Shown here: piece after piece, positions 1-55,250 of the stretch
How the letters are laid out: the number at the start of each line of letters is the position of its first letter
How positions within the stretch are numbered: position 1 is the first letter of the stretch
Assembly (NCBI GenBank): GCA_016792585.1
Contig: JAEULB010000159.1
Span: forward strand, 47,097-111,096
Length of the DNA stretch: 64,000 bases
From: Rhodospirillaceae bacterium
GTDB taxonomy: Bacteria; Pseudomonadota; Alphaproteobacteria; SHVZ01
Direction of reading: 5' to 3'
Position numbers and translations under genes: made by a program
The notes under the pieces: generated by a model
What the model was told of the DNA's origin: nothing
Database searches by the model: none
Seen by the model: only the letters and a program-made list of their open reading frames with translations

Positions 1-211
1 CCAGGGCCTCGACGCGCCGGTCGAAGGCGAGACGCCGAGCCCGCTCGATCCGCCGAAGGGCTGTCCCTTCCACACCCGCTGCCCGCGCAAGGTAGGCACG
101 ATCTGCGAGGCCGCGCGTCCGCCAGAGCAGGTGACGCCCGCCGGCCATCGCATGGCCTGCCACATCCCGATGGCCGATCTCGCCCGCGTCCAGGAGAAAG
201 AGCTGACATGA
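1..211 (+). CDS. ABC transporter ATP-binding protein, C-terminal fragment (Dpp/Opp oligopeptide type); 5' end is outside the window
   Basis: The frame starting at nt 2 reads ...KGCPFHTRCPRKVGTICEAARPPEQVTPAGHRMACHIPMADLARVQEKELT*. That is the Cys/His-rich C-terminal extension typical of DppF/OppF-class ATPases. The stop overlaps the ATG at 208. Confidence 0.6.
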   Translation, partial: QGLDAPVEGETPSPLDPPKGCPFHTRCPRKVGTICEAARPPEQVTPAGHRMACHIPMADLARVQEKELT

Positions 212-1917
212 TTCAGAGCCAGATGGTCGCGACCCGCACCGAGGTCGCGGGCACGCGCGGTGTCGTCACCGGCGGGCATCCGGCCGAGGCCGCGGCCGGC
301 GTGGCAATGATCGAGGCCGGCGGCAATGCGATCGATGCCGTCGTCGCCGCCGCGTTCGTAGGATTCGTCGTCGAGCCGGCTTCGTGCGGCATCGGCGGCT
401 ACGGCCACCTCGCGGTCTGGCTCGGCAAGGAAAAGCGCTTCGTCACCTTCGACCACTATGTCCGCGCGCCGGGTGCGGCACGACCCGACATGTTCGAGAT
501 CGATCGCACCAAGCCGAACAAGTACTACGGCTTCCCCTACACGGTCGGGATGAAGGCCGAGCAGGGTCCGCTGGCGCCGGCGGTGCCGGGCGCCGTCGCG
601 GGCCTGTGCGATGCGCACCGCATGTTCGGCCGGCTGCCGCTGGCCAAGGTGCTGGAGCCGGCGATCGCCGAGGCCGAAGCCGGCATCGAGGTCACCTGGC
701 AGCTGCTGCTGCCGATCTCCGAGCGCCTCGCCGCGATCCAGGCATTGCCGGCGACCGCCGACTGGCTGCTGCGCAACAACCTGCCGCCGAAGGCCGCGGG
801 CCAGCTCGCCGGCGGCGGCGACCGTCTCGACGGCAAGGATCTCGCGAAGACGCTCCGCCGCATCGCCGAGAAGGGTGCGGCCGGCTTCTACGAAGGGCCG
901 GTCGCCGAGGCGATCGAGCGCCATGTGACCGGCCAGGGCGGCATCCTGACCGCCGCCGATCTCGCGACATACAAGACCCGCATCCTGGAAGAGAAGCCGA
1001 CCCGCTATCGCGGCCTCAACTGCAACACCTGCTACGACCAGGTGACCTACGAGGCGCTCAACATCCTCGAATGCTTCGACCTCAAGGCCCTCGGCAAGGA
1101 CAGCCTCGCCTTCCGCCATCTGATCGCCGAGGCGCTCGCCTGCGGCTTCATCGACAGCATGACGCATTACGGCGACCCGGACTTCGAGCGGGCACCGGTC
1201 GAAGGCCTCGCCAGCCCCGAGTTCGGGAAGATGCGCGCCCAGCAGCTCCGCATGGACCGCGCCCTGCCGCGTCCGGTCGCCGCCGCCGATCCCTGGCCCT
1301 ACGACAACTCGGCCGAGAGGCCGAAGAAGATCGCCAACGAGCCGGGCATCGCCAAGCTCGCCGGCACCAGCCAGATGGCCTCGGCCGATGCCGAGGGGAA
1401 CGTCTGCGCCTTGATCACCAGCCTCACCAGCGGCTTCGGATCGCTGATGATCGTTCCCGGTACCGGGGTAATCCTCAACAACTCGATGCAGAACTTCGAC
1501 CCGCGGCCCGACCAGGCGAACCGCATCAAGCCGGGCAAGATGCCGATCTTCGCCGCCCCTTCGCTGGTCGCCGAGAAGGACGGCCGCGCCGTCTTCGCCG
1601 GCTGCGGCTCGGGCGGCTACCGGATCACCACGGGCGTGCTGCACGCCTTCCTCTACGCGACCGAGTTCGGGATGGGCCCGCAGGCGGCGGTCGATGCGCC
1701 GCGGATCCACTGCCAGGGCCAGGAGACCTATGTCGACGGCCGCATTCCGCAGGAGGTGCGCGACGGTCTCGCGGCGATGGGCCACAAGGTCGTGGTCCAG
1801 ACCGAGTCCCCCGGCCTCAACGCCTTTGGCCGTGTGAACGCAATCACCGTCGCCAAGGACGGCTCGATGCGCGCCGGTTCGGGCCCGGCCTGGGCCTCCG
1901 CCGCGGCCGCGTGCTGA
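208..1917 (+). CDS. ggt: Gamma-glutamyltransferase family protein (Ntn hydrolase), paralog 1
   Basis: 569-aa ORF. The N-terminus reads TRGVVTGGHPAEAAAGVAMIEAGGNAIDAVVA. A putative autoprocessing Thr lies in TSQMASADAEGN, and a downstream PGTGVILNN box is present. There is an AGGAGA upstream of the start. Confidence 0.85.
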   Translation: MIQSQMVATRTEVAGTRGVVTGGHPAEAAAGVAMIEAGGNAIDAVVAAAFVGFVVEPASCGIGGYGHLAVWLGKEKRFVTFDHYVRAPGAARPDMFEIDRTKPNKYYGFPYTVGMKAEQGPLAPAVPGAVAGLCDAHRMFGRLPLAKVLEPAIAEAEAGIEVTWQLLLPISERLAAIQALPATADWLLRNNLPPKAAGQLAGGGDRLDGKDLAKTLRRIAEKGAAGFYEGPVAEAIERHVTGQGGILTAADLATYKTRILEEKPTRYRGLNCNTCYDQVTYEALNILECFDLKALGKDSLAFRHLIAEALACGFIDSMTHYGDPDFERAPVEGLASPEFGKMRAQQLRMDRALPRPVAAADPWPYDNSAERPKKIANEPGIAKLAGTSQMASADAEGNVCALITSLTSGFGSLMIVPGTGVILNNSMQNFDPRPDQANRIKPGKMPIFAAPSLVAEKDGRAVFAGCGSGGYRITTGVLHAFLYATEFGMGPQAAVDAPRIHCQGQETYVDGRIPQEVRDGLAAMGHKVVVQTESPGLNAFGRVNAITVAKDGSMRAGSGPAWASAAAAC

Positions 1918-1942
1918 GGTGATGAGGAGAAGTGACTTCCTA

Positions 1943-1973
1943 CCCCCACTCCCGCCGAAGGCGGGGGAGGGTT
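1943..1973. repeat. GC-rich imperfect hairpin (CTCCCGCC-GAA-GGCGGGGGAG) ending in a GGGGGAGGGTT core; a short copy of the REP-like element at 45939-46095
   Basis: It lies between the GGT1 stop (1917) and the most probable GGT2 start (1994). It shares the motif GGGGGAGGGTT with the intergenic element at 45945-45975. Confidence 0.45.
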
Positions 1974-1993
1974 CCGATGGAAGCGGGTCGGCC

Positions 1994-3667
1994 ATGAGGC
2001 CCGGCTCGGTCATCCTCGGCCGGACGCCGATCAGCGGTACCAAGGGCGCCGTCGCCTGCGGGCACCAGACAGCGGCCGATGTCGGCGTCGAGATCATCCG
2101 CCAGGGCGGCAATGCGGTGGATGCGGCGATCGCCGGCGCCTTCGCCTCCTTCGTCGTCGAGCCGCAGATGTGCGGGATCGGCGGGCATGGCCGGATGTCG
2201 GTCTATCTCGCGAAGACCGATAAGGCCGTCGGCATCGACCACTTCATCCGGGCGCCCAAGGCGGCGACGCCGGAGATGTACACGCGGGCTCTCGCCAAGT
2301 GGCGCAACGCCGGCTGGGGCGGCGTCGAGGGCGCGATCAACACCACGGGCCACCTCTCGGTCGGAATCCCCGGCACCATCGCCGGCCTCTGGGAGGCGCA
2401 TCGCCTCTTCGCCAAGCTGCCGTGGAAGTCGTTGGTCGGCCCCGCGATCGAGCTTGCCCGCGCCGGCGTCGTCGCCGATCCGAGGCTGACCGCCTCGATC
2501 GCCGGCCGGACGGTCGAGATCCGCCAGTATGCCGAGGCGGCGAAGTGGCTGCTGCCTGACGACGCGCCGCCCCGCCCGGCCAATGCCGGCGGCGCTTTCC
2601 ACCGCTTCGACTTCTCCGACATGGCCCGGACGCTGGAGACCATCGCCGAGAAAGGCGCCGCCGCCTTCTATGACGGCCGGCTCGCCGCCGCGATCGACCG
2701 TGAGATGCAGTCCGCCGGCGGCCTGCTGACGTCAGAGGACCTCGCCGGCTACAAGCCCGACACTTTCCTTCAGCCCTGGCACGACTACCGCGGACGCGAC
2801 TACGTCACCTGCGGCGACCTTATCTATGTCGAGGCCCTCAACATCCTCGAGCGCTTCGACCTGGGATCGCTCGACCCGCACGGGGCCGAGGTCCGGCACC
2901 TAGTCGCCGAGGCCCTGGCCCAGTCCTTCGCCGACAACTTCGCCCATGCCGCCGACCCGAGGCACCTGAAGGCGCCGCTCGAGGGTCTGGCCAGCAAGGC
3001 CTTCGCCGCCGAGCAGGCGGCGCTTATCCGGACCGAAAAGGCGCGCACCAAGGTCGAGCCGGGCAACCCGTGGCCGCACCAGGGACCGACGCCGTCGGTC
3101 CCGCCGCCGCCCTTCGAGGGCACGACCCAGATCGTCGCCGCCGACGGCGACGGCAACATGGCGAGCCTGATCACCAGCCTCGGCAGCGCTTTCGGCTCGC
3201 TGGTCATGATCCCTGGAACCGGGGTCTTCCTCGGCAACGCCATGCAGTGGTTCGACCCGCGCCCTGGCCAGGCCAACTCGGTCGGCCCCGGACGCATGCC
3301 CCTTTATGCCGCCCCGGTCGCGATCTTCCGCGAAGGCGGCCGATCGATCGGTGGGATCGCCGGCTCCGGCGGCTATCGCATCCTCTCGGCAATTCTAATC
3401 TTAACACTCAATTATCTTAACCATCTATTTGATCCACAACAATCTATCGACCTTCCGCGAATTCACACGGAGGGTGGCGACCTCGAGGTCGACAGCCGCA
3501 CCTCCCCGGCCGCCATCGATCGCTTGAAAGCCCTCGGCCACCGGGTCCGGCTGGTCGACGGCGTCGGCCTGCCGACCGCCTTCGGCCGCCCGTCTGCGGT
3601 GTGGCGGACGGCCGACGGCCTGGTTCCCGCCAGCGACGCGCGCTCCGGCGGCGTCGCCGCCTTCTGA
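1994..3667 (+). CDS. ggt: Gamma-glutamyltransferase family protein, paralog 2, tandem to paralog 1
   Basis: The ORF track opens at 1919, but the N-terminal alignment with paralogs 1 and 3 (GAVACGHQTAADVGVEIIRQGGNAVDAAIA) favours the Met at 1994. The catalytic Thr lies in EGTTQIVAADGDGNMASLITSL. The gene contains an anomalous AT-rich in-frame patch at 3388-3468. Confidence 0.8.
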   Translation: MRPGSVILGRTPISGTKGAVACGHQTAADVGVEIIRQGGNAVDAAIAGAFASFVVEPQMCGIGGHGRMSVYLAKTDKAVGIDHFIRAPKAATPEMYTRALAKWRNAGWGGVEGAINTTGHLSVGIPGTIAGLWEAHRLFAKLPWKSLVGPAIELARAGVVADPRLTASIAGRTVEIRQYAEAAKWLLPDDAPPRPANAGGAFHRFDFSDMARTLETIAEKGAAAFYDGRLAAAIDREMQSAGGLLTSEDLAGYKPDTFLQPWHDYRGRDYVTCGDLIYVEALNILERFDLGSLDPHGAEVRHLVAEALAQSFADNFAHAADPRHLKAPLEGLASKAFAAEQAALIRTEKARTKVEPGNPWPHQGPTPSVPPPPFEGTTQIVAADGDGNMASLITSLGSAFGSLVMIPGTGVFLGNAMQWFDPRPGQANSVGPGRMPLYAAPVAIFREGGRSIGGIAGSGGYRILSAILILTLNYLNHLFDPQQSIDLPRIHTEGGDLEVDSRTSPAAIDRLKALGHRVRLVDGVGLPTAFGRPSAVWRTADGLVPASDARSGGVAAF

Positions 3668-3744
3668 CCGATGCCGGTCGCTTTGCGGCAGGTACGGACC
3701 CTGTCCGCGACGTGAGATGATCCACCGCTTCCCAGAGGAATGAG

Positions 3745-5091
3745 ATGTCCCTTCCCGCCAAAGCCAAATACGTCGTCATCGGCGCCGGTGTTCACGGCCT
3801 ATCGACCGCCTATCACCTGGCCGAGAAGCTGGAGGCGACCGGCAAGGGCTCGGGCAAGGACATCGTGATCCTGGACAAGACCGGCATCGCCGCCGGCGCC
3901 TCGGGCATCGCCTGCGGGGTCATCCGCAACAACTACTTCCAGCCGGCGATGCGCGAGCTGATGGCCGAGTGCGTGTCGGTCTGGGAGTCGGACCCCAAAG
4001 CCTTCTCCTACCACCCCGTAGGCTACATGCAGATCTCTCCTGAAGTGATGCATGAGAATGTCGGGCAGATCGCCAAGCAGCAGAAAGATATCGGCTACGA
4101 CTCTGTTTTCATTGAGGGCAAGGCCGACTGCACCAAGTACATGAAGGGCCTGTTCGACGACTGGCAGGCCAAGGGCATCACCTCGGTCCTGCACGAGAAG
4201 AAGGGCGGCTACGCCAACAACCGGGCGTCCATGTACGGGCTCGCCAAGAAGGCTGAGGCGAACGGTGTCCAGATCGTGGCGCCGACCAAGGTCACCGGCT
4301 TCAAGTTCGCGTCCAACTCGACGGCGGTCTCGGCGGTCGAGACCGACCGCGGCACGATCGAGTGCGACTTCGTGGTGGTCGGCGTCGGCCCCTGGATCAA
4401 CCAGGTCTGGAAGATGCTTGACCTGCCCAAGACCGTCGACATCAAGGGCCGCGACGGCAAGGTCCACAAGGCCGTCGGCATGTGGACCTACTGGTGCCTG
4501 GAGGAAGGCACGCTCGGCGTCGATCCCAAGTATGGCCTCATGAACGACGGCAAGATGGGCCCGGTCATGCACGTCGACACCGACGCGCCGTTGCACTCGG
4601 ACGAGGATGGCTCCCTCATCACCGACAAGCTCTGGGGCATCTACTACAAGCCCGACTTCAACTTCGACGGCATCCAGGGCGGCGCCATGCCGTACAAGGT
4701 CGAGACCCCGGTAGATGAGGTGAAGATCGACCCTTACGGCCCTGACTCACCTGAGTTCATTGTCGACGCCAACTTCGCGCACATGTTCACCTCGGCCCTC
4801 GCCTTCTGCCAGAAGCGCTACTCGGGCCAGGCGCACAAGTGGAAGCACGAGCCGTCTGGCGGGCTGGGCTGCTTCACCCCGGACAGCTTCCCGGTCTTCG
4901 ACGTCTTCCGCGACAACGTCTATGTGCTGGCCGACTCGAACCACGGGTACAAGATGATCGCGGTCGGCAAGCTCGCAGCCGGCGAGATCGTCAGCGGCAC
5001 CAAGAGCAAGCTGCTCGAGCCCTTCCGGATCTCGCGCTTCCCCGAGGGCAAGCTGCACCCGGTCTCCAACAGCCCCTTCCCCTGGAGCTGA
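3745..5091 (+). CDS. FAD-dependent oxidoreductase of the DAO / sarcosine-oxidase-beta-like class
   Basis: The N-terminal Rossmann motif is KYVVIGAGVHGLSTAYHLAE. The RBS is AGAGGAATGAG-ATG. The protein is Lys-rich and the gene is locally lower in GC than its neighbours. Confidence 0.7.
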   Translation: MSLPAKAKYVVIGAGVHGLSTAYHLAEKLEATGKGSGKDIVILDKTGIAAGASGIACGVIRNNYFQPAMRELMAECVSVWESDPKAFSYHPVGYMQISPEVMHENVGQIAKQQKDIGYDSVFIEGKADCTKYMKGLFDDWQAKGITSVLHEKKGGYANNRASMYGLAKKAEANGVQIVAPTKVTGFKFASNSTAVSAVETDRGTIECDFVVVGVGPWINQVWKMLDLPKTVDIKGRDGKVHKAVGMWTYWCLEEGTLGVDPKYGLMNDGKMGPVMHVDTDAPLHSDEDGSLITDKLWGIYYKPDFNFDGIQGGAMPYKVETPVDEVKIDPYGPDSPEFIVDANFAHMFTSALAFCQKRYSGQAHKWKHEPSGGLGCFTPDSFPVFDVFRDNVYVLADSNHGYKMIAVGKLAAGEIVSGTKSKLLEPFRISRFPEGKLHPVSNSPFPWS

Positions 5092-5094
5092 CCC

Positions 5095-6516
5095 ATGCCC
5101 GCGCCGATGGATTTCATCCACAAGCTCAAGTTCGACGACCTTCCGGCGAAGGTGGTCGAGCAGGCCAAGCTCTGCCTCGTGGACCTCATCGGCGCGGCGG
5201 CAGCCGGCAGCGAGACCGCGATGTCGCGGATCATCCGCGACCACGCGGTCGAGACCTTCGGGGCGCGCAAGAACGCCGTCCGCCTGATGCTGGACGGCCG
5301 CAAGGTCGGCCCCGCCGGCGCCGCGATGGCCGGCGGCATCACCATCGACGCCTTCGACTCCCATGACGGCCACGTGCTGACCAAGGGCCATGCGGGCGTC
5401 GCGATCCTGCCGACCCTGCTGGCCCTGGCCGACCCGCTGAAGAAGGTCGCCGGCCGCGAATTCCTGACGAGCCTGGTGATCGGCTACGAGATCGCGATCC
5501 GCGCCGGCATCGCCACCCATCGGACGGCGAAGGACTATCACACCTCCGGGTCCTGGAACTCGCTCGGCGCCGCCGCGGTCGTGGCGCGCTGGATGAAGCT
5601 CTCCCCGGCGCTAACCCGGGAGGCCCTCGGCATCGCCGAGTATCATGGCCCCCGCAGCCAGATGATGCGCTGCATCGACTTCCCGACCATGGTGAAGGAC
5701 GGCTCCGGCTGGGGTGCCATGGCCGGCGTCAGCGCGGCACTGCTGGCGAAGGCCGGTTTCACCGGCGCTCCGGCCCTGGTCTGGGAGGGCGCCGACGTCG
5801 CCGATCTCTGGCGCGACCTCGGCAAGCGCTGGCGGATCATGGAGATGTACTTCAAGCCCTACCCGGTCTGCCGCTGGGCCCAGCCGCCGATCACCGCCAG
5901 CCTCGGCCTGCTCAAGAAGCACGGCATCAAGGGCGATGAGGTGACCCAGATCGAGGTCTCGACCTTCCACAACGCCGTCCGGCTCGCGACCCGGACGCCG
6001 AAGTCGACCGAGGAGGCGCAGTACAGCCTGCCCTTCCCGGTCGCCGCCGCGATCGTTCACGGCAAGGTCACCGCCCGCGAAGTCGACGGCAAGGGCCTGA
6101 CCGATCCCCGTGTGCTCAAGCTCGCCCGCGGCATGAAGCTGACCGAGGACCTGTCGCTGACCGCCGAGTTCCCGGCCCGCCGCATCGCCCGCGTCGCCTT
6201 GACCATCAAGGACGGCCGTGTGCTCAAGTCCGATCTCGTCGAGGCGCTCGGCGATCCGGAGCGGCCACTGGGCGCGGCCGGCATCGTCGCCAAGTACCGC
6301 GAGACAGCCGAGGCCGTGCTCGGCAAGGCCCGCACCGAGAAGATCTTGGCTCAGGCGATGGCGATGGACGGAGCGCGAGCCGATGCCCGCGCGCTGGTCG
6401 ACCTGGTGCTGGCGCCGGTGAAGGTGCAGAAGCCGGCGACGACGAAGCGCCGCGCGGCGGGCCGGCCGAAGACGCGCGCCAATGGCAGCGTCCAGGCCCT
6501 CGCCGCCGACGACTGA
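5095..6516 (+). CDS. MmgE/PrpD family protein (2-methylcitrate dehydratase-like)
   Basis: 473 aa. The N-terminus LPAKVVEQAKLCLVDLIGAAAAG is characteristic of the family. The start is 4 nt after the upstream stop, suggesting translational coupling. Confidence 0.75.
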   Translation: MPAPMDFIHKLKFDDLPAKVVEQAKLCLVDLIGAAAAGSETAMSRIIRDHAVETFGARKNAVRLMLDGRKVGPAGAAMAGGITIDAFDSHDGHVLTKGHAGVAILPTLLALADPLKKVAGREFLTSLVIGYEIAIRAGIATHRTAKDYHTSGSWNSLGAAAVVARWMKLSPALTREALGIAEYHGPRSQMMRCIDFPTMVKDGSGWGAMAGVSAALLAKAGFTGAPALVWEGADVADLWRDLGKRWRIMEMYFKPYPVCRWAQPPITASLGLLKKHGIKGDEVTQIEVSTFHNAVRLATRTPKSTEEAQYSLPFPVAAAIVHGKVTAREVDGKGLTDPRVLKLARGMKLTEDLSLTAEFPARRIARVALTIKDGRVLKSDLVEALGDPERPLGAAGIVAKYRETAEAVLGKARTEKILAQAMAMDGARADARALVDLVLAPVKVQKPATTKRRAAGRPKTRANGSVQALAADD

Positions 6517-6535
6517 TCCGCTTCGAGGCGCCCGG

Positions 6536-6691
6536 CTATTCGGCCGGCGCGCCCGCCGGAAGATTCGCCGTTCCCTGTCGCTCGATCAGTTTGTCGCGCT
6601 CGACCATCCAGCCGCGGAAGATGACCACCATCCCGAGCATCACCAGGACGGTGAAGATCATGATCATGATCGGCAGGAATACCTCATGCAT
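6536..6691 (-). CDS. Hypothetical small membrane protein of 51 aa (MHEVFLPIMIMIFTVLVMLGMVVIFRGWMVERDKLIERQGTANLPAGAPAE); absent from the ORF track because it is under 60 aa
   Basis: Hand translation of the minus strand gives an ATG at 6691-6689 and a TAG at 6538-6536. An AGGGGG Shine-Dalgarno sits 6-11 nt upstream. The product has one clear TM segment. It lies at the 3' end of the minus-strand ABC importer operon. Confidence 0.35.
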   Translation of the reverse strand: MHEVFLPIMIMIFTVLVMLGMVVIFRGWMVERDKLIERQGTANLPAGAPAE

Positions 6692-6779
6692 GTCAGCCCC
6701 CTGAAATTCTTCAGCAAAAGAAGGATTTCAGAGTTGGCCGTGGTCAGCATTGATTCAGGTCAAATTTGCGGAGAACCGC

Positions 6780-8495
6780 CTAGTTCACGTAGCGGTGCCG
6801 GGCGTGGATGCGGCGCTCGCGCGGATCGGGGCGCGGCACGGCTGAGAGCAGTGCCTTCGTGTAGCCGTGAACAGGGTCGTTGCAGACCTGCTCGGCATCG
6901 CCGGTCTCGACCACCTTGCCGCGATACATCACCGCGACCCGGTCGCAGATGTAGCGGATGACGCTGATGTCGTGGCTGACGAAGACGTAGGCGAGCTTGA
7001 GCTCGTCCTGGAGCTGCAGCATCAGGTCGAGCATCTGGGCACGGAGGGAGACGTCGAGGGCCGAGGTCGCCTCGTCCGCGACGATCAGGCGCGGGCTCAA
7101 GGCCAGCGCGCGAGCGATGCCGATGCGCTGGCGCTGGCCGCCGGAGAAGGCGTGCGGGTAGCGCTCGGCCCAGTCCGGATTGAGCCCGACGCGCTTCAAG
7201 AGTGCGGCGACCCGGTCGTGCAGCTCCGAGCCCTCGGCGATGCCGTTCACCAGCAACGGCTCGCCGATGATCTGGCCGACGGTCATGCGCGGATTGAGCG
7301 AGGCGAACGGATCCTGGAAGATCATGCGCATCTCGCGCCGGCACTCCCGCAGCCTGTCCTTCTCCAGGCTGGCCACGTCGTCGACGCTGCCGTCGGGACG
7401 GCGATAGAGGATCTGCCCGGCAGTCGGCTCGTAGACGCGAAGCAGGCAGCGGCCGAGCGTGGTCTTGCCCGAGCCGGACTCGCCGACGATACCGAGCGTC
7501 TCGCCCGCGCGCACGACGATGTCGACGTCGTCGACGGCGCGGACATGGTCGACCACCTTGCGGAAGAAACCCTTCCGGATCGGGAAGTGCATCTTGAGCC
7601 CGCGCACGTCGAGCAATGGCGGCTCCTCGGCGGAGACCGGCTCGCGCGCGGCGCGGATCTGGGAAGGCCGCTCCAGCTTCAGCACGTTGCCGAGCAGCAT
7701 CTGGGTATAGGGATCCTGGGGGGCGTGGAAGATCTGCTCGACCGGGCCGCGCTCGACCACCTTTCCCTGGTACATGACCACGACCTCGTCGGCGATCTCG
7801 GCGACGACGCCCATGTCGTGGGTGATGAACATCACCGCCATGCCGCGCTCGGCCTGGAGGCGCTTCATCAGGTCGAGGATCTCGGCCTGGGTGGTGACAT
7901 CCAGAGCCGTGGTCGGCTCGTCGGCGATCAGCACCTGCGGATTGCAGGCCAAGGCCATCGCGATCATCGCCCGCTGCCGCATGCCGCCCGAGTACTCGAA
8001 GGTGTAGCGCTCGATCGCACGCTCCGGATTCGGAATCTCGACTGCGCGCAGAAGCTCGATCGCCCGCGCCGTCGCCTCCTTCTTGCTCATGCCGAGATGG
8101 AGCGTCAGCACCTCGGTGATCTGGTTGCCGATCGTGTGCACCGGCGACAGCGACGACATCGGCTCCTGGAAGATCATCGCGATCTCGGCGCCGCGCACCG
8201 ACCGGATCTCGCGCCCGCGCGGGTTCAGGGAAGCGAGGTCGACCGATGTACCGTTCGTGCGGTTGAAGACGATCGAGCCCTTCTCCACGCGGCCGGGCGG
8301 ATCGACGATCTGCAGGATCGAGCGGGCAGTCACGCTCTTGCCCGACCCCGACTCGCCGACGACGCAGACGGTCTTGCCGCGCGAGAGGTCGAAAGAGACG
8401 CCGTCGACCGCCTTCACCACGCCGCCGCGCACGGGGAAGTGGGTGTGGAGGTCGCGGATCGAGATGATCGGCTGGCCAGGGGAAGCAGTAGTCAT
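6780..8495 (-). CDS. ABC transporter ATP-binding protein with duplicated ATPase domains (fused DppD/DppF type)
   Basis: There are two Walker A motifs (GESGSGKS and GESGSGKT) and two LSGG signature boxes ([16 protein letters not shown]). It overlaps the upstream permease stop. Confidence 0.9.
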
Positions 8496-9643
8496 TTGTT
8501 ATACGGATCGGCGGCGTCACGAAGCCCGTCGCCGAGGAAGTTGAGGGCAAGGACGGCGATCACCACCGCCGCCCCCGGCGCGAACAGCCAGGGCGCGGTC
8601 ACGATCGAGCGGATGTTCTGCGCCTCCCGCAGCAGCACGCCCCAGGAGATCACCGGCGGCTGCAGGCCGAGGCCAAGGAACGAAAGGGCCGTCTCGGCGA
8701 GGATCATCGCCGGGATCGCCAGCGTGACGCTGGCGACGATGTGGCTCATGAAGCTCGGCAGCATGTGGCGGAAGATGATGCGCATCTCGGACGCGCCGTC
8801 GAGGCGCGCCGCGGTCACGAAGTCCTCGGTGCGAAGCGAGAGGAAGCGGCCCCGGACGACGCGCGCGAGCTGGGCCCAGCCGATCAGCGAAAGGATCAGC
8901 GTGATCATGAAGTAGTGCAGCAGCGCCGGCCAGTTCTGCGGCAAGGCGGCGGCGAGCGCCAGCCAGATCGGGATCGTCGGCAGCGCCAGGATGAACTCGA
9001 TCACGCGCTGGATCACGAAATCGATCCGGCCGCCGTAATAGCCGGAGATGCCGCCGAGCAGGATGCCGATCAGCAGCGACATCGCCACGCCGACGAGGCC
9101 GATCGACATCGAGATCTGGCACCCCTTGACGATCCGGCTCCACACGTCGCGACCGAGGCGGTCGGAGCCCAGGAAGAAGATCTGCTGGCGCGGGTCCGTG
9201 CTGCCGATCAGATGGGTCTTCGAAGGGATCAGGCCGAAAAGGTGATAAGCGTAGCCCTCGGCGAAGAAGCGAAGGTCGATCCTCCGCGTCGGATCCTCGG
9301 TGTAGATCGGCGCCAGCGTGACCGGGTCGCGCTTCAGCACCATCTGCTTGACGTGCGGGCTGAAGACCGTGCTGCCGTCAGGCAGGGTCGCGAACAGGTG
9401 GAGAGGCTGCGGCGGATGGTAGACCGCACGCGCATTCTGCTGGCTCGGATCGGTGGTGGCGAAGAAATCCGGCACCGCCGCGACGATGTAGATCATCAGC
9501 GTGACGATGGCGCCGAGCATCGCCAGCTTGTGCTTGCGGAACGACCACCAGACCAGCTGCCACTGGGACGCGGTGGTGAAGCGCGAGGCGGCGGTCGGCG
9601 GGGTCGGCTGCTCCGGTGGCGCGGTCTCGGTCTTGGCGGTCAT
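8492..9643 (-). CDS. ABC transporter permease (DppC/OppC family)
   Basis: 383 aa, multi-TM. It carries the conserved permease segment ...AMILAETALSFLGLGLQPP.... Confidence 0.85.
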   Translation of the reverse strand: MTAKTETAPPEQPTPPTAASRFTTASQWQLVWWSFRKHKLAMLGAIVTLMIYIVAAVPDFFATTDPSQQNARAVYHPPQPLHLFATLPDGSTVFSPHVKQMVLKRDPVTLAPIYTEDPTRRIDLRFFAEGYAYHLFGLIPSKTHLIGSTDPRQQIFFLGSDRLGRDVWSRIVKGCQISMSIGLVGVAMSLLIGILLGGISGYYGGRIDFVIQRVIEFILALPTIPIWLALAAALPQNWPALLHYFMITLILSLIGWAQLARVVRGRFLSLRTEDFVTAARLDGASEMRIIFRHMLPSFMSHIVASVTLAIPAMILAETALSFLGLGLQPPVISWGVLLREAQNIRSIVTAPWLFAPGAAVVIAVLALNFLGDGLRDAADPYNK

Positions 9644-10629
9644 CAGTCGAACCGGATGCGCGGGTCGACCAGCGCCAGCAGGATGTCACTGAGCAGCGTG
9701 CCGACGAGGGTCAGCGTGCACATCAGCAGCACGAACGCGCCAGCGAGGTACATGTCCTGGCTCATCAGCGACTGCAGCAGCAGCGGTCCTGCGATCGGCA
9801 GGCTCAGCACCACGGCGACGATAAGCGCGCCGGAGATCAGGTTCGGCAGTAGCCAGCCGATGGTTGAGATGAACGGATTGATCGCGACCCTGACCGGATA
9901 CTTGAGCAGCAGACGGAACTCGGAAAGTCCCTTGGCGCGGGCGGTCGTGACGTAGGGTCGGTGCAGCTCGTCCAGCATGTTGGCGCGCATGATGCGGATC
10001 AGGCTGGCGGTGCCGTTGGTGGCAAGGATGACCACCGGCACCCACAGGTGCTCGACCAGGTTCTGAACCTTCCCCCAGCTCCAGGGCGCGGTCTGGTATT
10101 CCGGCGAGAACAGCCCACCGACATCGGCCCCGAACAGCACGACGGCGACGTACATCAGAACCAACGCCAGCAGGAAGGACGGAATCGCGAGCCCGAGGAA
10201 GCCGAGGAAGGTGAAGAAGTAGTCGCCGATCGAGTACTGGCGCACCGCCGAATAGACACCGATCGGGAACGCCAGCGCCCAGGTCATCAGCAGGGTCGAC
10301 GAGGTGACGACCAGGGTCAGCGCCATGCGCTCCCAGATCAGCTCGGAGACCGGCTGCTGCCACTCGAAGCTGAGGCCGAAATCGCCGCGCGTGACGATCC
10401 CGACGATCCACTTGAAGTATTGGACGATGAACGGCTGGTCGAGCCCGAAGCGCGTGCGCAGCTCGGCCGCCGCGGTGCGGTCGACGATCTCGTTCGAGGC
10501 CGCCAGGGTCGCAATGTAGGTGGTGACGTAGTCGCCGGGCGGAAGCTGGATCAGGACGAACGCAAGAAAGCTGACGGCGAACAGCGACGGAACCATCCAC
10601 AACAGACGCTTAATGATGAAGCCCAGCAT
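9643..10629 (-). CDS. ABC transporter permease (DppB/OppB family)
   Basis: The N-terminus is MLGFIIKRLLWMVPSLFAVSFLAFVLIQLPPGDYV. It is 328 aa, and its stop abuts the start of the next permease. Confidence 0.85.
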   Translation of the reverse strand: MLGFIIKRLLWMVPSLFAVSFLAFVLIQLPPGDYVTTYIATLAASNEIVDRTAAAELRTRFGLDQPFIVQYFKWIVGIVTRGDFGLSFEWQQPVSELIWERMALTLVVTSSTLLMTWALAFPIGVYSAVRQYSIGDYFFTFLGFLGLAIPSFLLALVLMYVAVVLFGADVGGLFSPEYQTAPWSWGKVQNLVEHLWVPVVILATNGTASLIRIMRANMLDELHRPYVTTARAKGLSEFRLLLKYPVRVAINPFISTIGWLLPNLISGALIVAVVLSLPIAGPLLLQSLMSQDMYLAGAFVLLMCTLTLVGTLLSDILLALVDPRIRFD

Positions 10630-15228: not shown

Positions 15229-15957
15229 ATGCTCGATATCTCTCGCACCCTTCCCGCCGACAGCGAGACGCGCCAGAGCGACATCGCCTTCGAGATGGTG
15301 AAGGCCGATATCGTCGCCTGCCGGCTGGCTCCGGGCACGAGCGTGACCGAAGCCGAGCTCGCCGAGCGTTATCAGCTGGGCAAGGCGCCGATCCGGATGG
15401 CTCTGACCCGGCTCGCCGACCGCGACTGGCTGCGCGCGCTTCCCCGGCGCGGCTATCTGGTGAAGCCGGTCGCGATGCGCGACGTCACCGAGATCTTCGA
15501 TCTTCGCCTGATCATCGAGCCGGCCGCGGCGCGCGCCGCCGCCGGCCGCGTCGAGGTCAGCCGCCTCGAGCATCTGGACGCCGTCTGCCGTGCCGGCTTC
15601 GTGCCGGGCGACGCCGCCAGCGAAGCGACCTACCTTCAGGCGCACCGTCAGTTCCACTTCGCGATCGTGCTGGCAGCCGGCAATCGGCGCCTCGGCCGCA
15701 GCTTCGAGCCGCTGTGGGACGAGACCGAGCGCGTGCTGCACCACACCGGCCTGCTTCGCCGTGACGCCGAGCCGCTTCGCCACGACCACAAGCCGCTGAT
15801 CGAGGCGCTCCGCGCCGGCGACGGCGCCGCCGCCGAATCCGAGATGCGCGAGGAGGTCCAGCACCTCAGCCGCGCGATCATGGAGACCGCGCTCAAGACC
15901 GCGATCCTCCCTGCCCCGTCCGCCGAGACGGAGCGGGCCGAGGACGCGCGCTGGTGA
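15229..15957 (+). CDS. GntR-family transcriptional regulator (FadR/FCD subfamily)
   Basis: There is an N-terminal winged-helix domain (AELAERYQLGKAPIRMALTRLADRDWL) and a C-terminal FCD-type all-helical domain. Confidence 0.85.
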   Translation: MLDISRTLPADSETRQSDIAFEMVKADIVACRLAPGTSVTEAELAERYQLGKAPIRMALTRLADRDWLRALPRRGYLVKPVAMRDVTEIFDLRLIIEPAAARAAAGRVEVSRLEHLDAVCRAGFVPGDAASEATYLQAHRQFHFAIVLAAGNRRLGRSFEPLWDETERVLHHTGLLRRDAEPLRHDHKPLIEALRAGDGAAAESEMREEVQHLSRAIMETALKTAILPAPSAETERAEDARW

Positions 15958-16009
15958 CTACCTGCGCCGGCAGGGGGCCGGCACGTCGTTCCAACCTGGG
16001 AGGCTCAAC

Positions 16010-17509
16010 ATGAACCGATGGTCGATATGGCTCAGGACCGCCGCGCTCGCGACGGTGCTCGCCGCCGGACAAGCCTACGCCGCCAAGGATGTGCTGGTTA
16101 TCGATCTCGCCAGCGAGCCCGCCTCGCTCGACCCGCATGTCCAGTGGAACCCGGACAGCTACTGGGTCTACCGCAACATCTTCGACAACGTCGTGACGCG
16201 CGACGACGACGGCAAGATCATCCCGCAGGTCGCGACCTCGTGGAAAGCGATCGACGACAAGACGATCGAGTTCGCGCTCCGCAGCGACATCACGTTCCAT
16301 GACGGCACGGCGATGACCGCCGACGACGTCGCCTTCACCGTCAAGCGCATCACCGATCCCGCCTTCAAGAGCCCGCAGCTCGACCAGTTCAACAAGATCG
16401 TCGCGACCGAGGTGGTCAATCCGACGACGATCCGCTTCAGGACCGACAGCGTCTATCCGGTGCTCATGGCGCAGCTGACCAAGCTCAGCGTCGTGCCGAA
16501 GGCGCATGTCGAGAAGGTCGGCAACGAAGCCTTCAACCAGGGCCCGGTCGGCAGCGGCGCCTACAAGTTCCAGTCGATCCAGCGCGGCGTGAAGACGACA
16601 CTGGTGCGCAACGACGCCTATTGGGGCCAGAAGGGCGCCTTCCCGACGGTCGAGTTCCGGCCGGTGCCTGACCAGGCGACCCGCATGGCCGATCTCCGCT
16701 CCGGCAAGGCCGACCTGATCGTCACGATCAACGCCGACCACGCCAAGGAGCTGAAGGCCGATGCCAATACCAAGGTGCTGAGCGTGCTCAGCGAGCGCGT
16801 CGCCTACTTCATGCTGAACTCGCTGACCGGCCCGACCTCGGACCTCCGTGTCCGCCAGGCGATCTCGCACGCGATCGACCGCCAGGGCATCATCGACGGC
16901 CTGATGGGCGGCTACGACAAGCCGGTCGCGACCATGCTGTCGCCCGTCCATGTCGGCTTCTCCGACGGCTTCAAGGGCCCGGTCTACGACCCCAACAAGG
17001 CGAAGGAGCTCTTGAAGGCCGTCGGCGCCCCAGCGCAAGGCACCTTCACCCTCTTCACCTCGCCGGTCTTCGACCAGCGCATCGTCGTCGCGATCCAGCA
17101 GATGCTGCGCGACGTCGGGCTCAAGGTCGAGATCACCTCCAGCGACTTCGCCAACTGGCTGAAGCGCGCCCAGGCCTCGCCGCAGGAGTTCGGCGAGGTC
17201 ACCTTCAGCCGCTGGTCCTGCGGCTGCCAGGACGCCGACGGCATCCTCTTCCCGCTCTACCACTCGAAGAGCCAGTGGGCGAAGTCGAACAACCCGGCGA
17301 TGGACGCCGAGCTCGATGCCGGCCGCTCAACCCTCGACGTGGCGAAGCGCACCCAGCACTACAAGAAGGCGAACGAGCTCGCCGAGGCGACCGTCCCGCT
17401 GGTGCCGCTCTACCAGGCCGCCATCCTCTACGGCGCCCGCAAGGAGCTGCGCTGGAAGCCGACGCCGAACGAGAGCTTCTTCATCAACCGCATCGGCTGG
17501 GACGGCTGA
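16010..17509 (+). CDS. ABC transporter substrate-binding protein, family 5; orphan, with no adjacent permeases
   Basis: The signal peptide is MNRWSIWLRTAALATVLAAGQAYA. The RBS is GGGAGG. The fold matches the family. Confidence 0.8.
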   Translation: MNRWSIWLRTAALATVLAAGQAYAAKDVLVIDLASEPASLDPHVQWNPDSYWVYRNIFDNVVTRDDDGKIIPQVATSWKAIDDKTIEFALRSDITFHDGTAMTADDVAFTVKRITDPAFKSPQLDQFNKIVATEVVNPTTIRFRTDSVYPVLMAQLTKLSVVPKAHVEKVGNEAFNQGPVGSGAYKFQSIQRGVKTTLVRNDAYWGQKGAFPTVEFRPVPDQATRMADLRSGKADLIVTINADHAKELKADANTKVLSVLSERVAYFMLNSLTGPTSDLRVRQAISHAIDRQGIIDGLMGGYDKPVATMLSPVHVGFSDGFKGPVYDPNKAKELLKAVGAPAQGTFTLFTSPVFDQRIVVAIQQMLRDVGLKVEITSSDFANWLKRAQASPQEFGEVTFSRWSCGCQDADGILFPLYHSKSQWAKSNNPAMDAELDAGRSTLDVAKRTQHYKKANELAEATVPLVPLYQAAILYGARKELRWKPTPNESFFINRIGWDG

Positions 17510-17522
17510 TCGGTCTATGATC

Positions 17523-17562
17523 GGGCGAGGGCGCCGTCGGGTGCCCTCGCCCTTTTCCTTTT
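17523..17562 (+). terminator. Rho-independent terminator: GGGCGAGGGC, 10-nt loop, GCCCTCGCCC, then TTTTCCTTTTCC
   Basis: A perfect 10-bp GC stem followed by a T-tract lies 14 nt after the substrate-binding protein stop. Confidence 0.7.
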
Positions 17563-17575
17563 CCGGGAATCCCAC

Positions 17576-18379
17576 ATGGCCGCCATGAGCTGGGGCGACG
17601 AGTTCGCCGGCAAGCGCGTCGTCGTCACCGGCGCCTGCGGCATCTACGGCCGCTGGATCGCCAAGGCCTTCGACGCGGTCGGGGCGAAGCTCTGCCTCTC
17701 CGACGTGAAGGACAAGGATCTCGCTGCCTTCGCCGCGGAACTGAAGCTCTCGGACAAGGACGGGCTCACCCACAAGACCGATCTGACCGACGCCGCTTCG
17801 ATCGACGACCTCGTCGCCAGCGTGGCCAAGGCCTGGGGTGCCGCCGACATCGTCGTCAACAATGCCGGCATCTATCCGAGCGGCTTCCTTCTCGATATCG
17901 ACGTGAAAGAGTGGGACCGGATCATCGGGGTCAACCTGCGCGCGCCCTTCCTGGTCTCGCGCGGCTTCGCCAAGCTGATGATCCGGCACAAGGTCAAGGG
18001 CAGCATCGTCGACATCTCCTCGGGCGCGTCGCGCAAGATGCGGCGCACGGTGGCGCCCTACTGCCTCTCCAAGACCGCGCTCGACCGCCTCAACAAGGGC
18101 TTCGCGATCGAGCTCGCCGAGTTCGGCATCCGCGTCAACATCGTCGAGCCCGGCTTCGCGCCGGGATCGACCGCGAGCCCCCTGACGCCCGCCCATGTCG
18201 AGGCGACCCTGGCGCAGATCCCGCTCGGCCGTGCGACGCTGCCCAACGAGGCGCCGGATGCGGTGCTGTTCCTCTGCTCGAGCAAGGCCGAGTACATCAC
18301 CGGCACGACGCTGACCGTCGACGGCGGCAACTCGATCGGCAGCCTCGCCGTCCATCAGGACAAGAAGCGTCCCGGGTGA
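17576..18379 (+). CDS. SDR-family oxidoreductase
   Basis: 267 aa with a Gly-rich NAD(P)-binding N-terminus (VVVTGACGIYGRWIAKAF). Confidence 0.8.
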   Translation: MAAMSWGDEFAGKRVVVTGACGIYGRWIAKAFDAVGAKLCLSDVKDKDLAAFAAELKLSDKDGLTHKTDLTDAASIDDLVASVAKAWGAADIVVNNAGIYPSGFLLDIDVKEWDRIIGVNLRAPFLVSRGFAKLMIRHKVKGSIVDISSGASRKMRRTVAPYCLSKTALDRLNKGFAIELAEFGIRVNIVEPGFAPGSTASPLTPAHVEATLAQIPLGRATLPNEAPDAVLFLCSSKAEYITGTTLTVDGGNSIGSLAVHQDKKRPG

Positions 18380-19905
18380 CATCGTCGACGTCGAAGCGCG
18401 CCGTCGCCTCCCCTCGCGGCGTCGTCGCCGCCCAGCACCCCGCCGCCGCCGAAGCCGGGATCCGCATGCTGGCATCCGGCGGCAACGCGATCGACGCCGC
18501 GGTTGCCGCGACCCTGGCGGTTGGCGTCGTCGAGCCCTGGCTCAGCGGCATCGGCGGCGGCGGCCTGATGCTGCTTCGGCTTGCGGCCGAGGGCGTCACC
18601 CGAGGCATCGACTTCTCGATGGTCTCGCCGCGCCGCCTCGATCCGGCACGCTATGCGCTGGCGACCGGCACCGATGCAGGGCTCTTCCAGTGGCCGCGCG
18701 TCGTGGGCGACCGCAACATTTCCGGTCCGGAGTCGATCTGCGTTCCGGGGACGATCGCCGGCCTCGGCCTCGCCACCGAGCGTTTCGCCAGGCTTTCGTG
18801 GCGCCAACTGATCCAGCCGGCGATCGAACTCGCCGAAGCCGGCCTGCCTGTCGACTGGTTCACCGCACTGACCATCGGCGTCGAGGCCGGGCTCGAGGCG
18901 TATCCGGCGACGCGGATGGTGTTCCTGCCGGGCGGCGCCGCGCCGAAGGCCGATACCGGTCTGAGGCTCGCCAACCCGGCGCTGACGGGGACACTCCGCC
19001 GTCTTGCCGATGCCGGCCCCGGCGACTTCTACGAAGGCGGGATCGCCCGCGGCATCGTCGCCGACCTCGCCGCGCATGGCAGCGTGATCGATCGCGACGA
19101 CCTCGCCGGCTACGAGGCGCGGATGGTCGAACCGGCGTCGCTCGACTATCGGGGAACCGCGATCGAGGCGATGCCCGGCTTGACCGGCGGCCCGACCTAC
19201 CTCGCGGCGATGCGCGGGCTTCTGCACGACATCGTGCCCGGCACCTCGCCGACACCCGAGGCGTTCGTCGCCTACGCTCGCGCCCTCACCGCAGCCTATG
19301 CCGACCGGTTCGCGACCCACGGCCATGCCGGCCTCACCCACGATTCCGGATGCACCTCGCATGTCAGCGTCATCGACGCGGACGGCAACATGGCGTCGGT
19401 CACCAACACGCTGCTCGCCCGCTTCGGCGCCAAGCTGGTGCTGCCGTCGACCGGCATCCTCATGAACAACGGCATGATGTGGTTCGACCCGCGCCCCGGC
19501 GCCGCAAACGCGATCGCGGCGGGCAAACGGCCGCTTGCGAACATGTGCCCGCTGCTGGCGACGCGCAACGGCACGCCGGTCTTCGTCATGGGGGCCGCCG
19601 GCGGGCGGCAGATCGTGCCGGCGCTGGTGCAGCTGACCTCGCTCCTGCTCGACTTCGGCATGTCGGTCGACGAGGCGCTGCGCGTCCCGCGCCTGGACGC
19701 CAGCACCTCGACCGTGATCTGCGACGACCGCATGCCCGCGGGCCAGGTCGCGGCGATCGCACAGTCGTTTCCGGTCTCGCGCATCGCCGACACCGTCTAT
19801 CCGGTGCAGTTCGGCGTGCCTAACGCAGTGGTTCGCGAGCGCGGCCTCAATATCGGCATGGCGCATCCGACCACGCCGTGGCCAGTCGCGCTGGCGGAGA
19901 GCTAG
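18376..19905 (+). CDS. ggt: Gamma-glutamyltransferase family protein, paralog 3
   Basis: A GTG start overlaps the SDR stop (GTGA). It is in frame with the track ORF 17911-19905. The N-terminus VVAAQHPAAAEAGIRMLASGGNAIDAAVA matches the other two paralogs. The catalytic Thr lies in CTSHVSVIDADGNMASVTNTL. Confidence 0.75.
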   Translation: MTSSTSKRAVASPRGVVAAQHPAAAEAGIRMLASGGNAIDAAVAATLAVGVVEPWLSGIGGGGLMLLRLAAEGVTRGIDFSMVSPRRLDPARYALATGTDAGLFQWPRVVGDRNISGPESICVPGTIAGLGLATERFARLSWRQLIQPAIELAEAGLPVDWFTALTIGVEAGLEAYPATRMVFLPGGAAPKADTGLRLANPALTGTLRRLADAGPGDFYEGGIARGIVADLAAHGSVIDRDDLAGYEARMVEPASLDYRGTAIEAMPGLTGGPTYLAAMRGLLHDIVPGTSPTPEAFVAYARALTAAYADRFATHGHAGLTHDSGCTSHVSVIDADGNMASVTNTLLARFGAKLVLPSTGILMNNGMMWFDPRPGAANAIAAGKRPLANMCPLLATRNGTPVFVMGAAGGRQIVPALVQLTSLLLDFGMSVDEALRVPRLDASTSTVICDDRMPAGQVAAIAQSFPVSRIADTVYPVQFGVPNAVVRERGLNIGMAHPTTPWPVALAES

Positions 19906-20282
19906 GCGAGTTCCTTCGCGAGCTCGTCCAACATGTGGAAGGCGGTGTTGGCCGCAGGCACGCCGCAGTAGATCGCCTGCTGCAGCACGATCTCCTTGAG
20001 GTCGTCGGGAGAGAACCCGCCCTCGACAAGCGCCGCGCGCGCATGCATGCGGAACTCGTCCCAGCGCGACAGCGCAAGCAGGGTGCCGATCACCAGGATC
20101 CGCCTGGTGCGGATGTCGAGGCCGGGTCGGGTCCAGATCTCGCCCCAGGCGTAGCGCGTGATCAGGTCCTGGAAGTCGCGCGTGAGGTCGTTGGTCTTCG
20201 CCACCGAGCGGTCGACATGGGCGTCGCCGAGCACCTTGCGGCGGACGCTCATGCCGGCGGCATGGCGCTCCTTCTCATCCAT
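19902..20282 (-). CDS. pcaC: 4-carboxymuconolactone decarboxylase
   Basis: 126 aa. The N-terminus MDEKERHAAGMSVRRKVLGDAHVDRS is a textbook PcaC N-terminus. Confidence 0.85.
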   Translation of the reverse strand: MDEKERHAAGMSVRRKVLGDAHVDRSVAKTNDLTRDFQDLITRYAWGEIWTRPGLDIRTRRILVIGTLLALSRWDEFRMHARAALVEGGFSPDDLKEIVLQQAIYCGVPAANTAFHMLDELAKELA

Positions 20283-55248: not shown

Positions 55249-55250
55249 GG

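Follow-up and report, generated by a model that had tools for sequence, protein, structure and literature searches.

A GGT-like amidase pair, a flavoenzyme and a PrpD-like protein encoded in a putative operon that points to N-methylated amide breakdown in a Rhodospirillaceae bacterium

Introduction

The gamma-glutamyltranspeptidases (GGTs; MEROPS T03, PF01019) of bacteria, among them E. coli Ggt, with its signal peptide of 25 residues, and the enzymes of B. licheniformis and B. subtilis, are the closest described relatives of three genes in a 64,000-nucleotide stretch of DNA from a Rhodospirillaceae bacterium (assembly GCA_016792585.1, contig JAEULB010000159.1), which we analysed as a whole and refer to as the window. 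Two of these genes, GGT1 and GGT2, are followed by genes for a DAO-type FAD-dependent amine oxidoreductase (here, the flavoenzyme) and for an MmgE/PrpD-superfamily protein (here, the PrpD-like protein). The third, GGT3, lies further along the window. Comparison of this locus with its relatives points to a route for the breakdown of an N-methylated amide, and not to glutathione housekeeping.

The roles of the residues that line the substrate pocket of bacterial GGTs are taken here from a review of these enzymes (PMC8062742). Arg114 binds the alpha-carboxylate of the donor, and the R114L and R114D enzymes are inactive. In the D433N enzyme transpeptidation is abolished and glutaryl-7-ACA acylase activity is gained, and class IV cephalosporin acylases naturally have Asn at position 433 (PMC8062742).

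Amidases of the GGT superfamily are already known from ABC-importer operons, as are sarcosine-oxidase-like enzymes from the catabolism of methylated amines, and the locus described here is a variant on both. The gmaS-mgsABC genes are those of the N-methylglutamate pathway, through which methylamine is used and which has gamma-glutamylmethylamide and N-methylglutamate as intermediates. The flavoenzyme resembles sarcosine oxidase beta, MSOX, DMGO and MgdA (PF01266) in its N-terminal FAD-binding half and in its top matches in fold searches, and the PrpD-like protein has both of the MmgE/PrpD domains found in IRG1, iminodisuccinate (IDS) epimerase and 2-methylcitrate dehydratase. The locus also resembles gmaS-mgsABC/mgdABCD operons and GbdR-controlled betaine catabolism, in the family of its flavoenzyme and in the type of regulator that lies upstream in relatives. 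Unlike N-methylglutamate operons, the window has GGT-type amidases and a peptide-type importer instead.

Results

Window positions 2-6516 hold a series of plus-strand genes. The first, at 2-211, supplies the final 69 codons of a gene for a fused two-domain Dpp/Opp-type ABC ATPase; the translation finishes GCPFHTRCP...VQEKELT* and shares 93% identity with the C-terminal end of the 681-aa ATPase that precedes GGT1 in L084, a locus of assembly GCA_041906305.1 (loci used for comparison are numbered with the prefix L). The TGA stop codon of the ATPase gene (209-211) overlaps the ATG of GGT1 (208-210) in the sequence ATGA, and from this overlap GGT1 is predicted to be translationally coupled to an ABC importer. 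Because the 3′ end of the ATPase gene overlaps the GGT1 start, positions 2-6516 would be the distal end of a longer operon. GGT1 (208-1917, stop codon 1915-1917; 569 aa; PF01019, E 3.6e-107) and GGT2 (1994-3667; PF01019, E 8.2e-108) both encode full-length G_glu_transpept proteins and are arranged head to tail. The flavoenzyme gene (3745-5091; 448 aa; PF01266 at residues 9-226) begins 77 nt beyond GGT2, and only 3 nt separate its stop codon, which ends at 5091, from the ATG of the PrpD-like gene at 5095 (5095-6516; 473 aa; PF03972, E 8.5e-46; PF19305, E 4.9e-35). A consensus scan of the coding strand from 1 to 7000 found no promoter-like or terminator-like site above shuffled background.

The next feature is a second Dpp/Opp-type importer, convergent with the operon on the minus strand (6780-10629), which by Pfam comprises a fused ATPase (6780-8495) and two permeases (8492-9643 and 9643-10629); its SBP_bac_5 substrate-binding protein gene extends, also on the minus strand, from ~10684. 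This importer is a separate transcription unit that is kept beside the operon in close relatives: its genes are 85-97% identical to genes downstream of the PrpD-like gene in L005/L090, L092, L095 and L084. An earlier note on this DNA, made from its letters alone, had described the head-to-tail GGT pair, the oxidoreductase, the closely spaced MmgE/PrpD gene and the opposite-strand peptide-type importer, and this layout holds. The same note had missed the ATPase tail at 2-211 and the N-methylated amine chemistry discussed below.

Two start codons can be proposed for GGT2, an in-frame GTG at 1919 and the ATG at 1994, which is the start annotated in relatives and gives an N-terminus that agrees with the 557-aa product annotated in L084. 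The 76 nt that separate the GGT1 stop codon from ATG 1994 (1918-1993) are in frame with GTG 1919. In L084, GGT1 and GGT2 abut directly, so the true start of GGT2 in the window is uncertain.

The lower G+C content of the flavoenzyme gene, to which the earlier note had drawn attention, is real (0.62-0.65, as compared with ~0.70 around it and ~68% for the window). The dip is confined to codon positions 1 and 2 (0.57 and 0.41); the G+C content of third codon positions (GC3) is 0.91. Given that this is as high as in the neighbouring genes, the lower G+C content reflects amino-acid composition and not recent acquisition, and a foreign origin of the gene was rejected on this ground.

The full operon is found in L084 and in L005/L090, from a Lake-type alphaproteobacterial metagenome-assembled genome (MAG). 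In these loci the minus strand carries genes for a GlxA/GbdR-like AraC regulator and an SBP_bac_5 protein, which stand opposite a plus-strand series of two permeases, a fused ATPase, GGT1, GGT2, the flavoenzyme and the PrpD-like protein, and the second importer lies convergently after the PrpD-like gene. The same gene order occurs in L002, L004, L005, L084, L090 and L093. A divergent lineage (L088/L089) has the order GGT2-type, flavoenzyme, PrpD, MTTB, GGT1-type, SBP_bac_5-type binding protein and permease, which indicates that the modules became interleaved after rearrangement; L089 retains the signatures of both GGTs, in a genome of different G+C content. The GbdR-like regulator (327 bits to NF052371) accompanies the flavoenzyme and PrpD-like genes, and is not found in loci that have only the importer and GGTs. 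In L084 and L005 this regulator is on the far side of the importer, so that components of the flavoenzyme-PrpD module bracket the GGT module. We conclude from gene order that the four-gene set is, in all appearance, a lineage-specific fusion of two conserved modules.

All three GGT-family proteins keep the catalytic core. Their nucleophile boxes, TSQ in GGT1, TTQ in GGT2 and TSH in GGT3, align with Thr391 of E. coli GGT, and alignment also shows that Thr391, Thr/Ser409, Gly483-Gly484 and Arg513 (E. coli numbering) are kept; the earlier note's assignment of three GGT-family genes, each with its nucleophile Thr, is thus supported by both Pfam and alignment. GGT1 and GGT2 are 42% identical to each other, and GGT3 is ~31% identical to GGT2. 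Like the GGTs of E. coli and of B. licheniformis and B. subtilis, to which they are ~30% identical, the three proteins have a full-length domain with the catalytic residues. Unlike those enzymes, they have no signal-peptide-like N-terminal extension, judged from the alignment, in which merely 13-16 polar residues precede the conserved core, and the lid loop of E. coli Ggt is not present in any of them in the same alignment. GGT1 and GGT2 differ further from bacterial GGTs in being encoded within an ABC-importer operon. All three score below the cut-off of the GGT equivalog TIGR00066 (312.8 bits for GGT1, 299.4 for GGT2 and 272 for GGT3, with a cut-off of 357.85), and reach 190-218 bits on PRK09615, for which the cut-off is 990.

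The gamma-glutamyl pocket is remodelled in all three proteins, as read from an alignment to E. coli Ggt that is at ~30% identity and is anchored by flanking invariant columns. In the order GGT1, GGT2 and GGT3, Arg114 is replaced by Tyr, Phe and Ser; Asn411 by Thr, Gly and Leu; Gln430 by Ser, Ala and Gly; Asp433 by Asn, Trp and Trp; and Ser462-Ser463 by Phe-Ala, Tyr-Ala and Ala-Asn. These patterns extend beyond the window. Among 120 homologs of GGT1 that are at least 56% identical to it, Tyr114 is found in 113, Asn433 in 119 and Phe462 in 119; Phe114, Gly411, Ala430 and Trp433 are invariant among homologs of GGT2 (32/32). Conservation of the pocket patterns throughout the families argues for distinct specificity, not decay.

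We conclude that GGT1 bears what its sequence presents as a class IV cephalosporin-acylase signature, Asn433, and in this it resembles both the glutaryl-7-ACA acylases and the D433N variant of the E. coli enzyme. GGT2 and GGT3, in which the equivalent residue is the bulkier, uncharged Trp, do not share the signature; Arg114, too, is lost, and the likeness to class IV acylases is one of sequence alone. The nearest solved structures by sequence are, for all three paralogs, genuine GGTs at ~30% identity, and the second-best solved match of GGT1 is 2nlz, which is named a 'cephalosporin acylase' in the PDB. Membership of the CapD or HpxW branch was ruled out, since the scores are far weaker than those to true GGTs: 75-94 bits to CapD (3g9k) and 57-67 bits to 5hft, which we take to be HpxW (oxamate amidohydrolase), as compared with 190-249 bits to B. 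licheniformis GGT. GGT1, GGT2 and GGT3 are predicted not to be ordinary GGTs. GGT1 and GGT2 are predicted to be cytoplasmic, self-processing N-terminal nucleophile (Ntn) amidohydrolases, which would most likely cleave a glutaryl, oxoglutaramyl or N-substituted amide bond in the imported compound and not glutathione.

The flavoenzyme belongs to a large family. More than 8000 database clusters match it, the best 120 of which are at least 72% identical and 445-448 aa long. In species-representative genomes, proteins 66-76% identical to it are found across Alpha- and Gammaproteobacteria, Terriglobia, Gemmatimonas, Latescibacterota, Eremiobacterota and Acidimicrobiia, and overall the family (447 aa) is 66-80% identical across at least six phyla. 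A tblastn search of 72,556 plasmids gave no match at E 1e-40, and an exact-sequence look-up of the window flavoenzyme returned no record. It falls far short of the SoxB subfamily: it scores 76.8 bits on soxB TIGR01373, for which the cut-off is 529.45, and only residues 9-216 are matched, whereas L001 encodes a genuine SoxB-type protein that reaches 484.6 bits. The C-terminal half is not recognised by Pfam. The solved structures closest to it in sequence and fold are those of sarcosine oxidase beta, proline dehydrogenase beta, MSOX, DMGO, glycine oxidase and MTOX, all of which are N-alkyl amino-acid oxidoreductases. An AlphaFold model with a pLDDT of 65 (shallow alignment), used for fold class only, would place the flavoenzyme, with low confidence, in the sarcosine-oxidase-beta/MSOX/DMGO class. 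Unlike members of the sarcosine oxidase/MgdA group, to which it is 17-25% identical, it is encoded by a single gene in the window, with no SoxA, SoxD or SoxG gene adjacent.

The genomic company of the family is that of the sarcosine oxidase/MgdA group: gmaS-mgsABC, soxBDAG-like, MTTB and GbdR-like genes. In 49 of the 83 flavoenzyme loci of a tblastn panel, the next gene downstream encodes a GmaS-type glutamine-synthetase homolog; the figure is 48 of 72 if loci with less than 1.8 kb of DNA beyond the flavoenzyme gene are set aside. The gmaS gene is followed by a GATase/GXGXG/Glu_synthase trio (mgsABC), and a divergent GntR gene is usual (loci including L001 and L007-L083). The flavoenzyme that heads gmaS-mgsABC operons is highly conserved and apparently undescribed. 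A genuine SoxBDAG/Mgd-type set is often nearby, and in at least eight gmaS-linked cases SoxA/SoxB-type genes are in the same locus. Given that a SoxB/MgdA-type gene often co-occurs in the locus, the flavoenzyme is not simply MgdA, and we rejected the view that it is solely a replacement for MgdABCD. In loci that lack gmaS, a GbdR/GlxA-like regulator usually adjoins the flavoenzyme gene; its neighbours in L063 encode an MttB-family methyltransferase, a further DAO protein and a pair of GMC (choline-dehydrogenase-like) oxidoreductases.

The PrpD-like protein is a distant relative of its reference enzymes. Its best matches in the PDB are IRG1/CAD and IDS epimerase, with weak E-values of 1e-21 to 1e-16; the latter acts on an N-substituted dicarboxylic amino acid. 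We rejected the identification of the protein as a 2-methylcitrate dehydratase, since it scores 34.5 bits on the PrpD equivalog NF006943, for which the cut-off is 575. Neither the window nor 85 related loci have prpB-, prpC- or acnD-like neighbours; unlike those of the reference enzymes, the neighbours of this subfamily are amine/betaine genes and not propionate/methylcitrate genes.

Neighbourhoods of the PrpD subfamily were compared in 80 metagenomic loci together with genomic ones. The flavoenzyme gene adjoins the PrpD-like gene in 21 of the 85 loci, in at least four clades. Homologs that are at least 76% identical to the window protein always stand beside a flavoenzyme (90-96% identical), and GGT2 is also present wherever the contig reaches far enough upstream. 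Homologs at 55-61% identity recur in two layouts. In the first, a recurrent cluster seen in L022, L097, L098, L101, L110, L121 and L114, the flavoenzyme, a GbdR-like regulator, MTTB, a CN_hydrolase protein, the PrpD-like protein and a CocE/NonD hydrolase are encoded with an OpuA-type ABC transporter. In the second, the flavoenzyme gene is divergent from genes for the PrpD-like protein and an alpha/beta-hydrolase-OsmC fusion. A 59% identical homolog is encoded on plasmid 1 of Paracoccus denitrificans PD1222 (L168, 385991-407244), beside genes for a CN hydrolase, a GlxA regulator and a glycine-betaine-type ABC transporter; in place of MTTB and the flavoenzyme, the neighbourhood in this Paracoccus version has an acyl-CoA dehydrogenase, a CoA ligase and a Rieske oxygenase system.

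We rejected a distinct 'PrpD-type' clade of flavoenzyme paralogs: in a neighbour-joining tree of 101 flavoenzyme sequences, drawn without support values, the PrpD-linked copies fall in at least four clades and are interleaved with the gmaS-linked copies. This arrangement suggests that one flavoenzyme function would serve both contexts.

GGT3 belongs elsewhere. It is the last gene of a plus-strand module (15229-19905) that consists of a GntR/FCD regulator (15229-15957), an SBP_bac_5 gene (16010-17509), a short-chain dehydrogenase/reductase (SDR) gene (17576-18379) and GGT3 itself (18376-19905). The Pfam frame of GGT3 is 17911-19905 (G_glu_transpept, E 1.9e-96), and translation most probably begins at GTG 18376, in an overlap with the SDR stop codon. 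Homologs 46-50% identical to GGT3 are found on plasmids of Microvirga, Agrobacterium and Paracoccaceae, in operons of the form GntR-SBP-(permeases)-SDR-polysaccharide deacetylase-GGT-(ATPases). The window version is reduced to GntR-SBP-SDR-GGT3, without the permeases, polysaccharide deacetylase and ATPases of the operons in L169, L170 and L171, and may rely on the neighbouring opposite-strand importer at 6780-10629. The best NCBIfam match of its binding protein (~16 kb) is GsiB, far below the cut-off of that family. We conclude that GGT3 is not part of the GGT1-GGT2-flavoenzyme-PrpD pathway. The earlier note had treated the three GGTs as one set, which does not stand, GGT3 being in an independent conserved GntR-SBP-SDR-(deacetylase)-GGT module.

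One alphaproteobacterial MAG (L074) has a GGT3-type gene (47% identical) at ~18900-20400, ~9 kb downstream of the flavoenzyme gene and past gmaS-mgsABC. No other GGT homolog was seen close to an N-methylglutamate operon.

On the minus strand between 10684 and 14387, the listed open reading frames (ORFs) are over-extended and overlapping, and their GC3 is below that of neighbouring genes; they include a 915-aa 'SBP_bac_5' ORF and a 557-aa ORF that has only a C-terminal UxuA/xylose-isomerase-like match. At 20275-27182, Lyase_1/ADSL_C and protocatechuate-dioxygenase-beta-like genes, both on the minus strand, come first, and beyond them lie an Ldh_2-family dehydrogenase gene and a tandem pair of amidase-signature genes. 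At 53524-61424, hydantoinase B and A genes on the minus strand adjoin two tandem CocE/NonD (S15) hydrolase genes on the plus strand, the first of which shares 39% identity with the S15 hydrolase found in the PrpD/MTTB clusters.

Discussion

The reading that we favour, to which we would give about an even chance, is that window positions 2-6516 are the distal part of one catabolic operon, by which an imported N-methylated amide would be hydrolysed, a C-N bond oxidised and its carbon skeleton processed. From the gene content, the layout, the pocket replacements and the neighbourhood statistics, all of which are direct observations, we infer the order of the steps and the class of substrate as follows. 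The upstream Dpp-type importer would take up the compound, and cytoplasmic GGT1 and GGT2, with pockets that would fit a glutaryl, 2-oxoglutaramyl or N-substituted acyl group, one that has no free alpha-amino acid head, would hydrolyse its amide bond or bonds. The flavoenzyme would most likely oxidise the C-N bond of a small N-methyl (secondary-amine) product that resembles an amino acid; the PrpD-like enzyme would then isomerise, dehydrate or decarboxylate the carboxylate skeleton. The GbdR-like regulator probably controls the whole route. We propose N-methylated amine chemistry because the usual partners of the flavoenzyme are gmaS-mgsABC and betaine/methylamine genes. The shared strand of all the genes and their close spacing favour a single unit.

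Several observations weigh against this reading. Linkage of GGT, flavoenzyme and PrpD-like genes is restricted to close relatives, in which the flavoenzyme is at least 90% identical, and there are more than 90 loci in which the flavoenzyme gene, with or without PrpD, has no GGT gene. The importer and GGT1-GGT2, with overlapping stop and start codons, are found in L172, L173 and L174 with neither flavoenzyme nor PrpD, and L086 has the importer and GGT1 alone. No gmaS, mgs, mgd or MTTB gene, and no gene for a betaine transporter, lies in the 64-kb window. It does encode at least five SBP_bac_5 proteins, along with two amidases, a ceramidase-like protein, an M20 peptidase, a pair of CocE/NonD hydrolases and hydantoinases A and B; the region being so generally dense in amidase and SBP_bac_5 genes, the probability of chance juxtaposition is not negligible. 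The 77-nt spacer between GGT2 and the flavoenzyme gene has room for an internal promoter. The low confidence of the flavoenzyme model, the lack of support values in the tree and the low identity at which the pocket residues were aligned count on the same side, and literature searches turned up no account of the flavoenzyme family, of this PrpD subfamily or of the activity of either.

Many of these observations would be expected if the modules were merely adjacent, the importer and GGT1-GGT2 acting on one amide or peptide and the flavoenzyme and PrpD-like protein on an unrelated methylated amine. Both modules occur alone, in the loci just named; the window is a mosaic of amidases, hydantoinases, S15 hydrolases and binding proteins; and a promoter within the spacer would let the two be expressed apart. 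The GGT1-GGT2 tandem itself has the appearance of an old unit tied to a Dpp-type importer, and its two members may work jointly, one after the other or as a complex. The importers of L172, L173, L174 and L086 have a divergent SBP_bac_5 protein. Simple adjacency nevertheless sits poorly with the shared strand, the tight spacing and the absence, in the scanned region, of a terminator-like site after GGT2. It also does not account for the regulator that accompanies the flavoenzyme and PrpD-like genes being found at the opposite flank of the importer-GGT module in L084 and L005, or for L089, in whose genome of different G+C content both GGT types remain interleaved with the flavoenzyme, PrpD and MTTB genes after rearrangement. 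We consider simple adjacency somewhat unlikely, although it has to be taken seriously.

The substrate might instead be a true gamma-glutamyl amide, such as gamma-glutamylmethylamide, theanine or a gamma-glutamyl peptide, from which the GGTs would release glutamate and an amine, with the flavoenzyme oxidising the amine or N-methylglutamate. This would suit a flavoenzyme family tied to gmaS-mgsABC, in whose pathway gamma-glutamylmethylamide and N-methylglutamate are intermediates, and proteins that have the GGT fold, intact catalytic residues and genuine GGTs as their best-scoring solved relatives. Furthermore, E. coli GGT D433N retains 82% of its hydrolytic activity (PMC8062742). However, all six of the residues that bind the alpha-amino and alpha-carboxyl groups are replaced, in the three paralogs and in their families; replacement of Arg114 alone, by Leu or Asp, inactivates the E. 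coli enzyme (PMC8062742); and each paralog is under the GGT equivalog cut-off. A gamma-glutamyl substrate is thus not indicated, because the residues that would recognise it are replaced, and we regard this alternative as improbable. Plain salvage of glutathione or gamma-glutamyl compounds, in which a Gsi-like importer would supply cytoplasmic GGTs that degrade glutathione and the oxidase and PrpD-like protein would be bystanders, agrees with the label 'gamma-glutamyltranspeptidase/glutathione hydrolase' given by the source pipelines and with GsiB being both a member of the SBP_bac_5 family and the best, far sub-threshold, match of the binding protein at ~16 kb, but is very improbable given the missing signal peptides, the remodelled pockets, the sub-threshold scores and the conserved paralog signatures, which argue for distinct specificity over decay.

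The favoured reading, a catabolic operon for an N-methylated amide, thus retains part of what the earlier note had proposed. Its judgement that the genes do not serve glutathione housekeeping is upheld by the absence of signal peptides, for which it had suggested a check and which none of the three paralogs shows at the N-terminus in the alignment, by the scores, by the replaced pocket residues and by the predicted coupling of GGT1 to an importer. Of its proposal that a gamma-glutamylated or N-acylated compound is broken down, the catabolic cluster stands and the gamma-glutamyl specificity does not, the recognition residues being replaced. The conservation of the neighbourhood that it had suggested examining is partial: GGT2, oxidase and PrpD are kept together in relatives, including the rearranged cluster, and occur apart in distant genomes.

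A bolder extension of the favoured reading is that the flavoenzyme, the PrpD-like protein and an interchangeable amidase constitute an undescribed route under the control of a GbdR-like regulator, which would convert an imported N-methylated or betaine-derived amide to methylamine or N-methylglutamate intermediates. The amidase would be the GGT-like pair here, and the CN-hydrolase with the CocE/NonD hydrolase elsewhere. The flavoenzyme would then be a missing single-subunit enzyme of the pathway, for example an N-methylglutamate or N5-methylglutamine oxidase, and the GGT homologs would be the natural amidases for compounds of the N-substituted glutaramate or 2-oxoglutaramate type. We put this extension forward as speculative and rather unlikely.

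For the GGT family, the comparison suggests that there are two large, conserved, predicted cytoplasmic subfamilies that are wired to ABC importers and in which gamma-glutamyl recognition has been specifically lost. The routine label 'gamma-glutamyltranspeptidase/glutathione hydrolase' is probably wrong for the GGT1 and GGT2 subfamilies, and these pocket-remodelled proteins may share their natural substrates with the long-puzzling class IV 'cephalosporin acylases'. The operon in the window offers a compact, testable set of four enzymes with which such substrates may be found. If the flavoenzyme is a working part of methylamine/betaine catabolism, it would add an extra step to a pathway that is relevant to nitrogen and C1 cycling in the sea and in soil.

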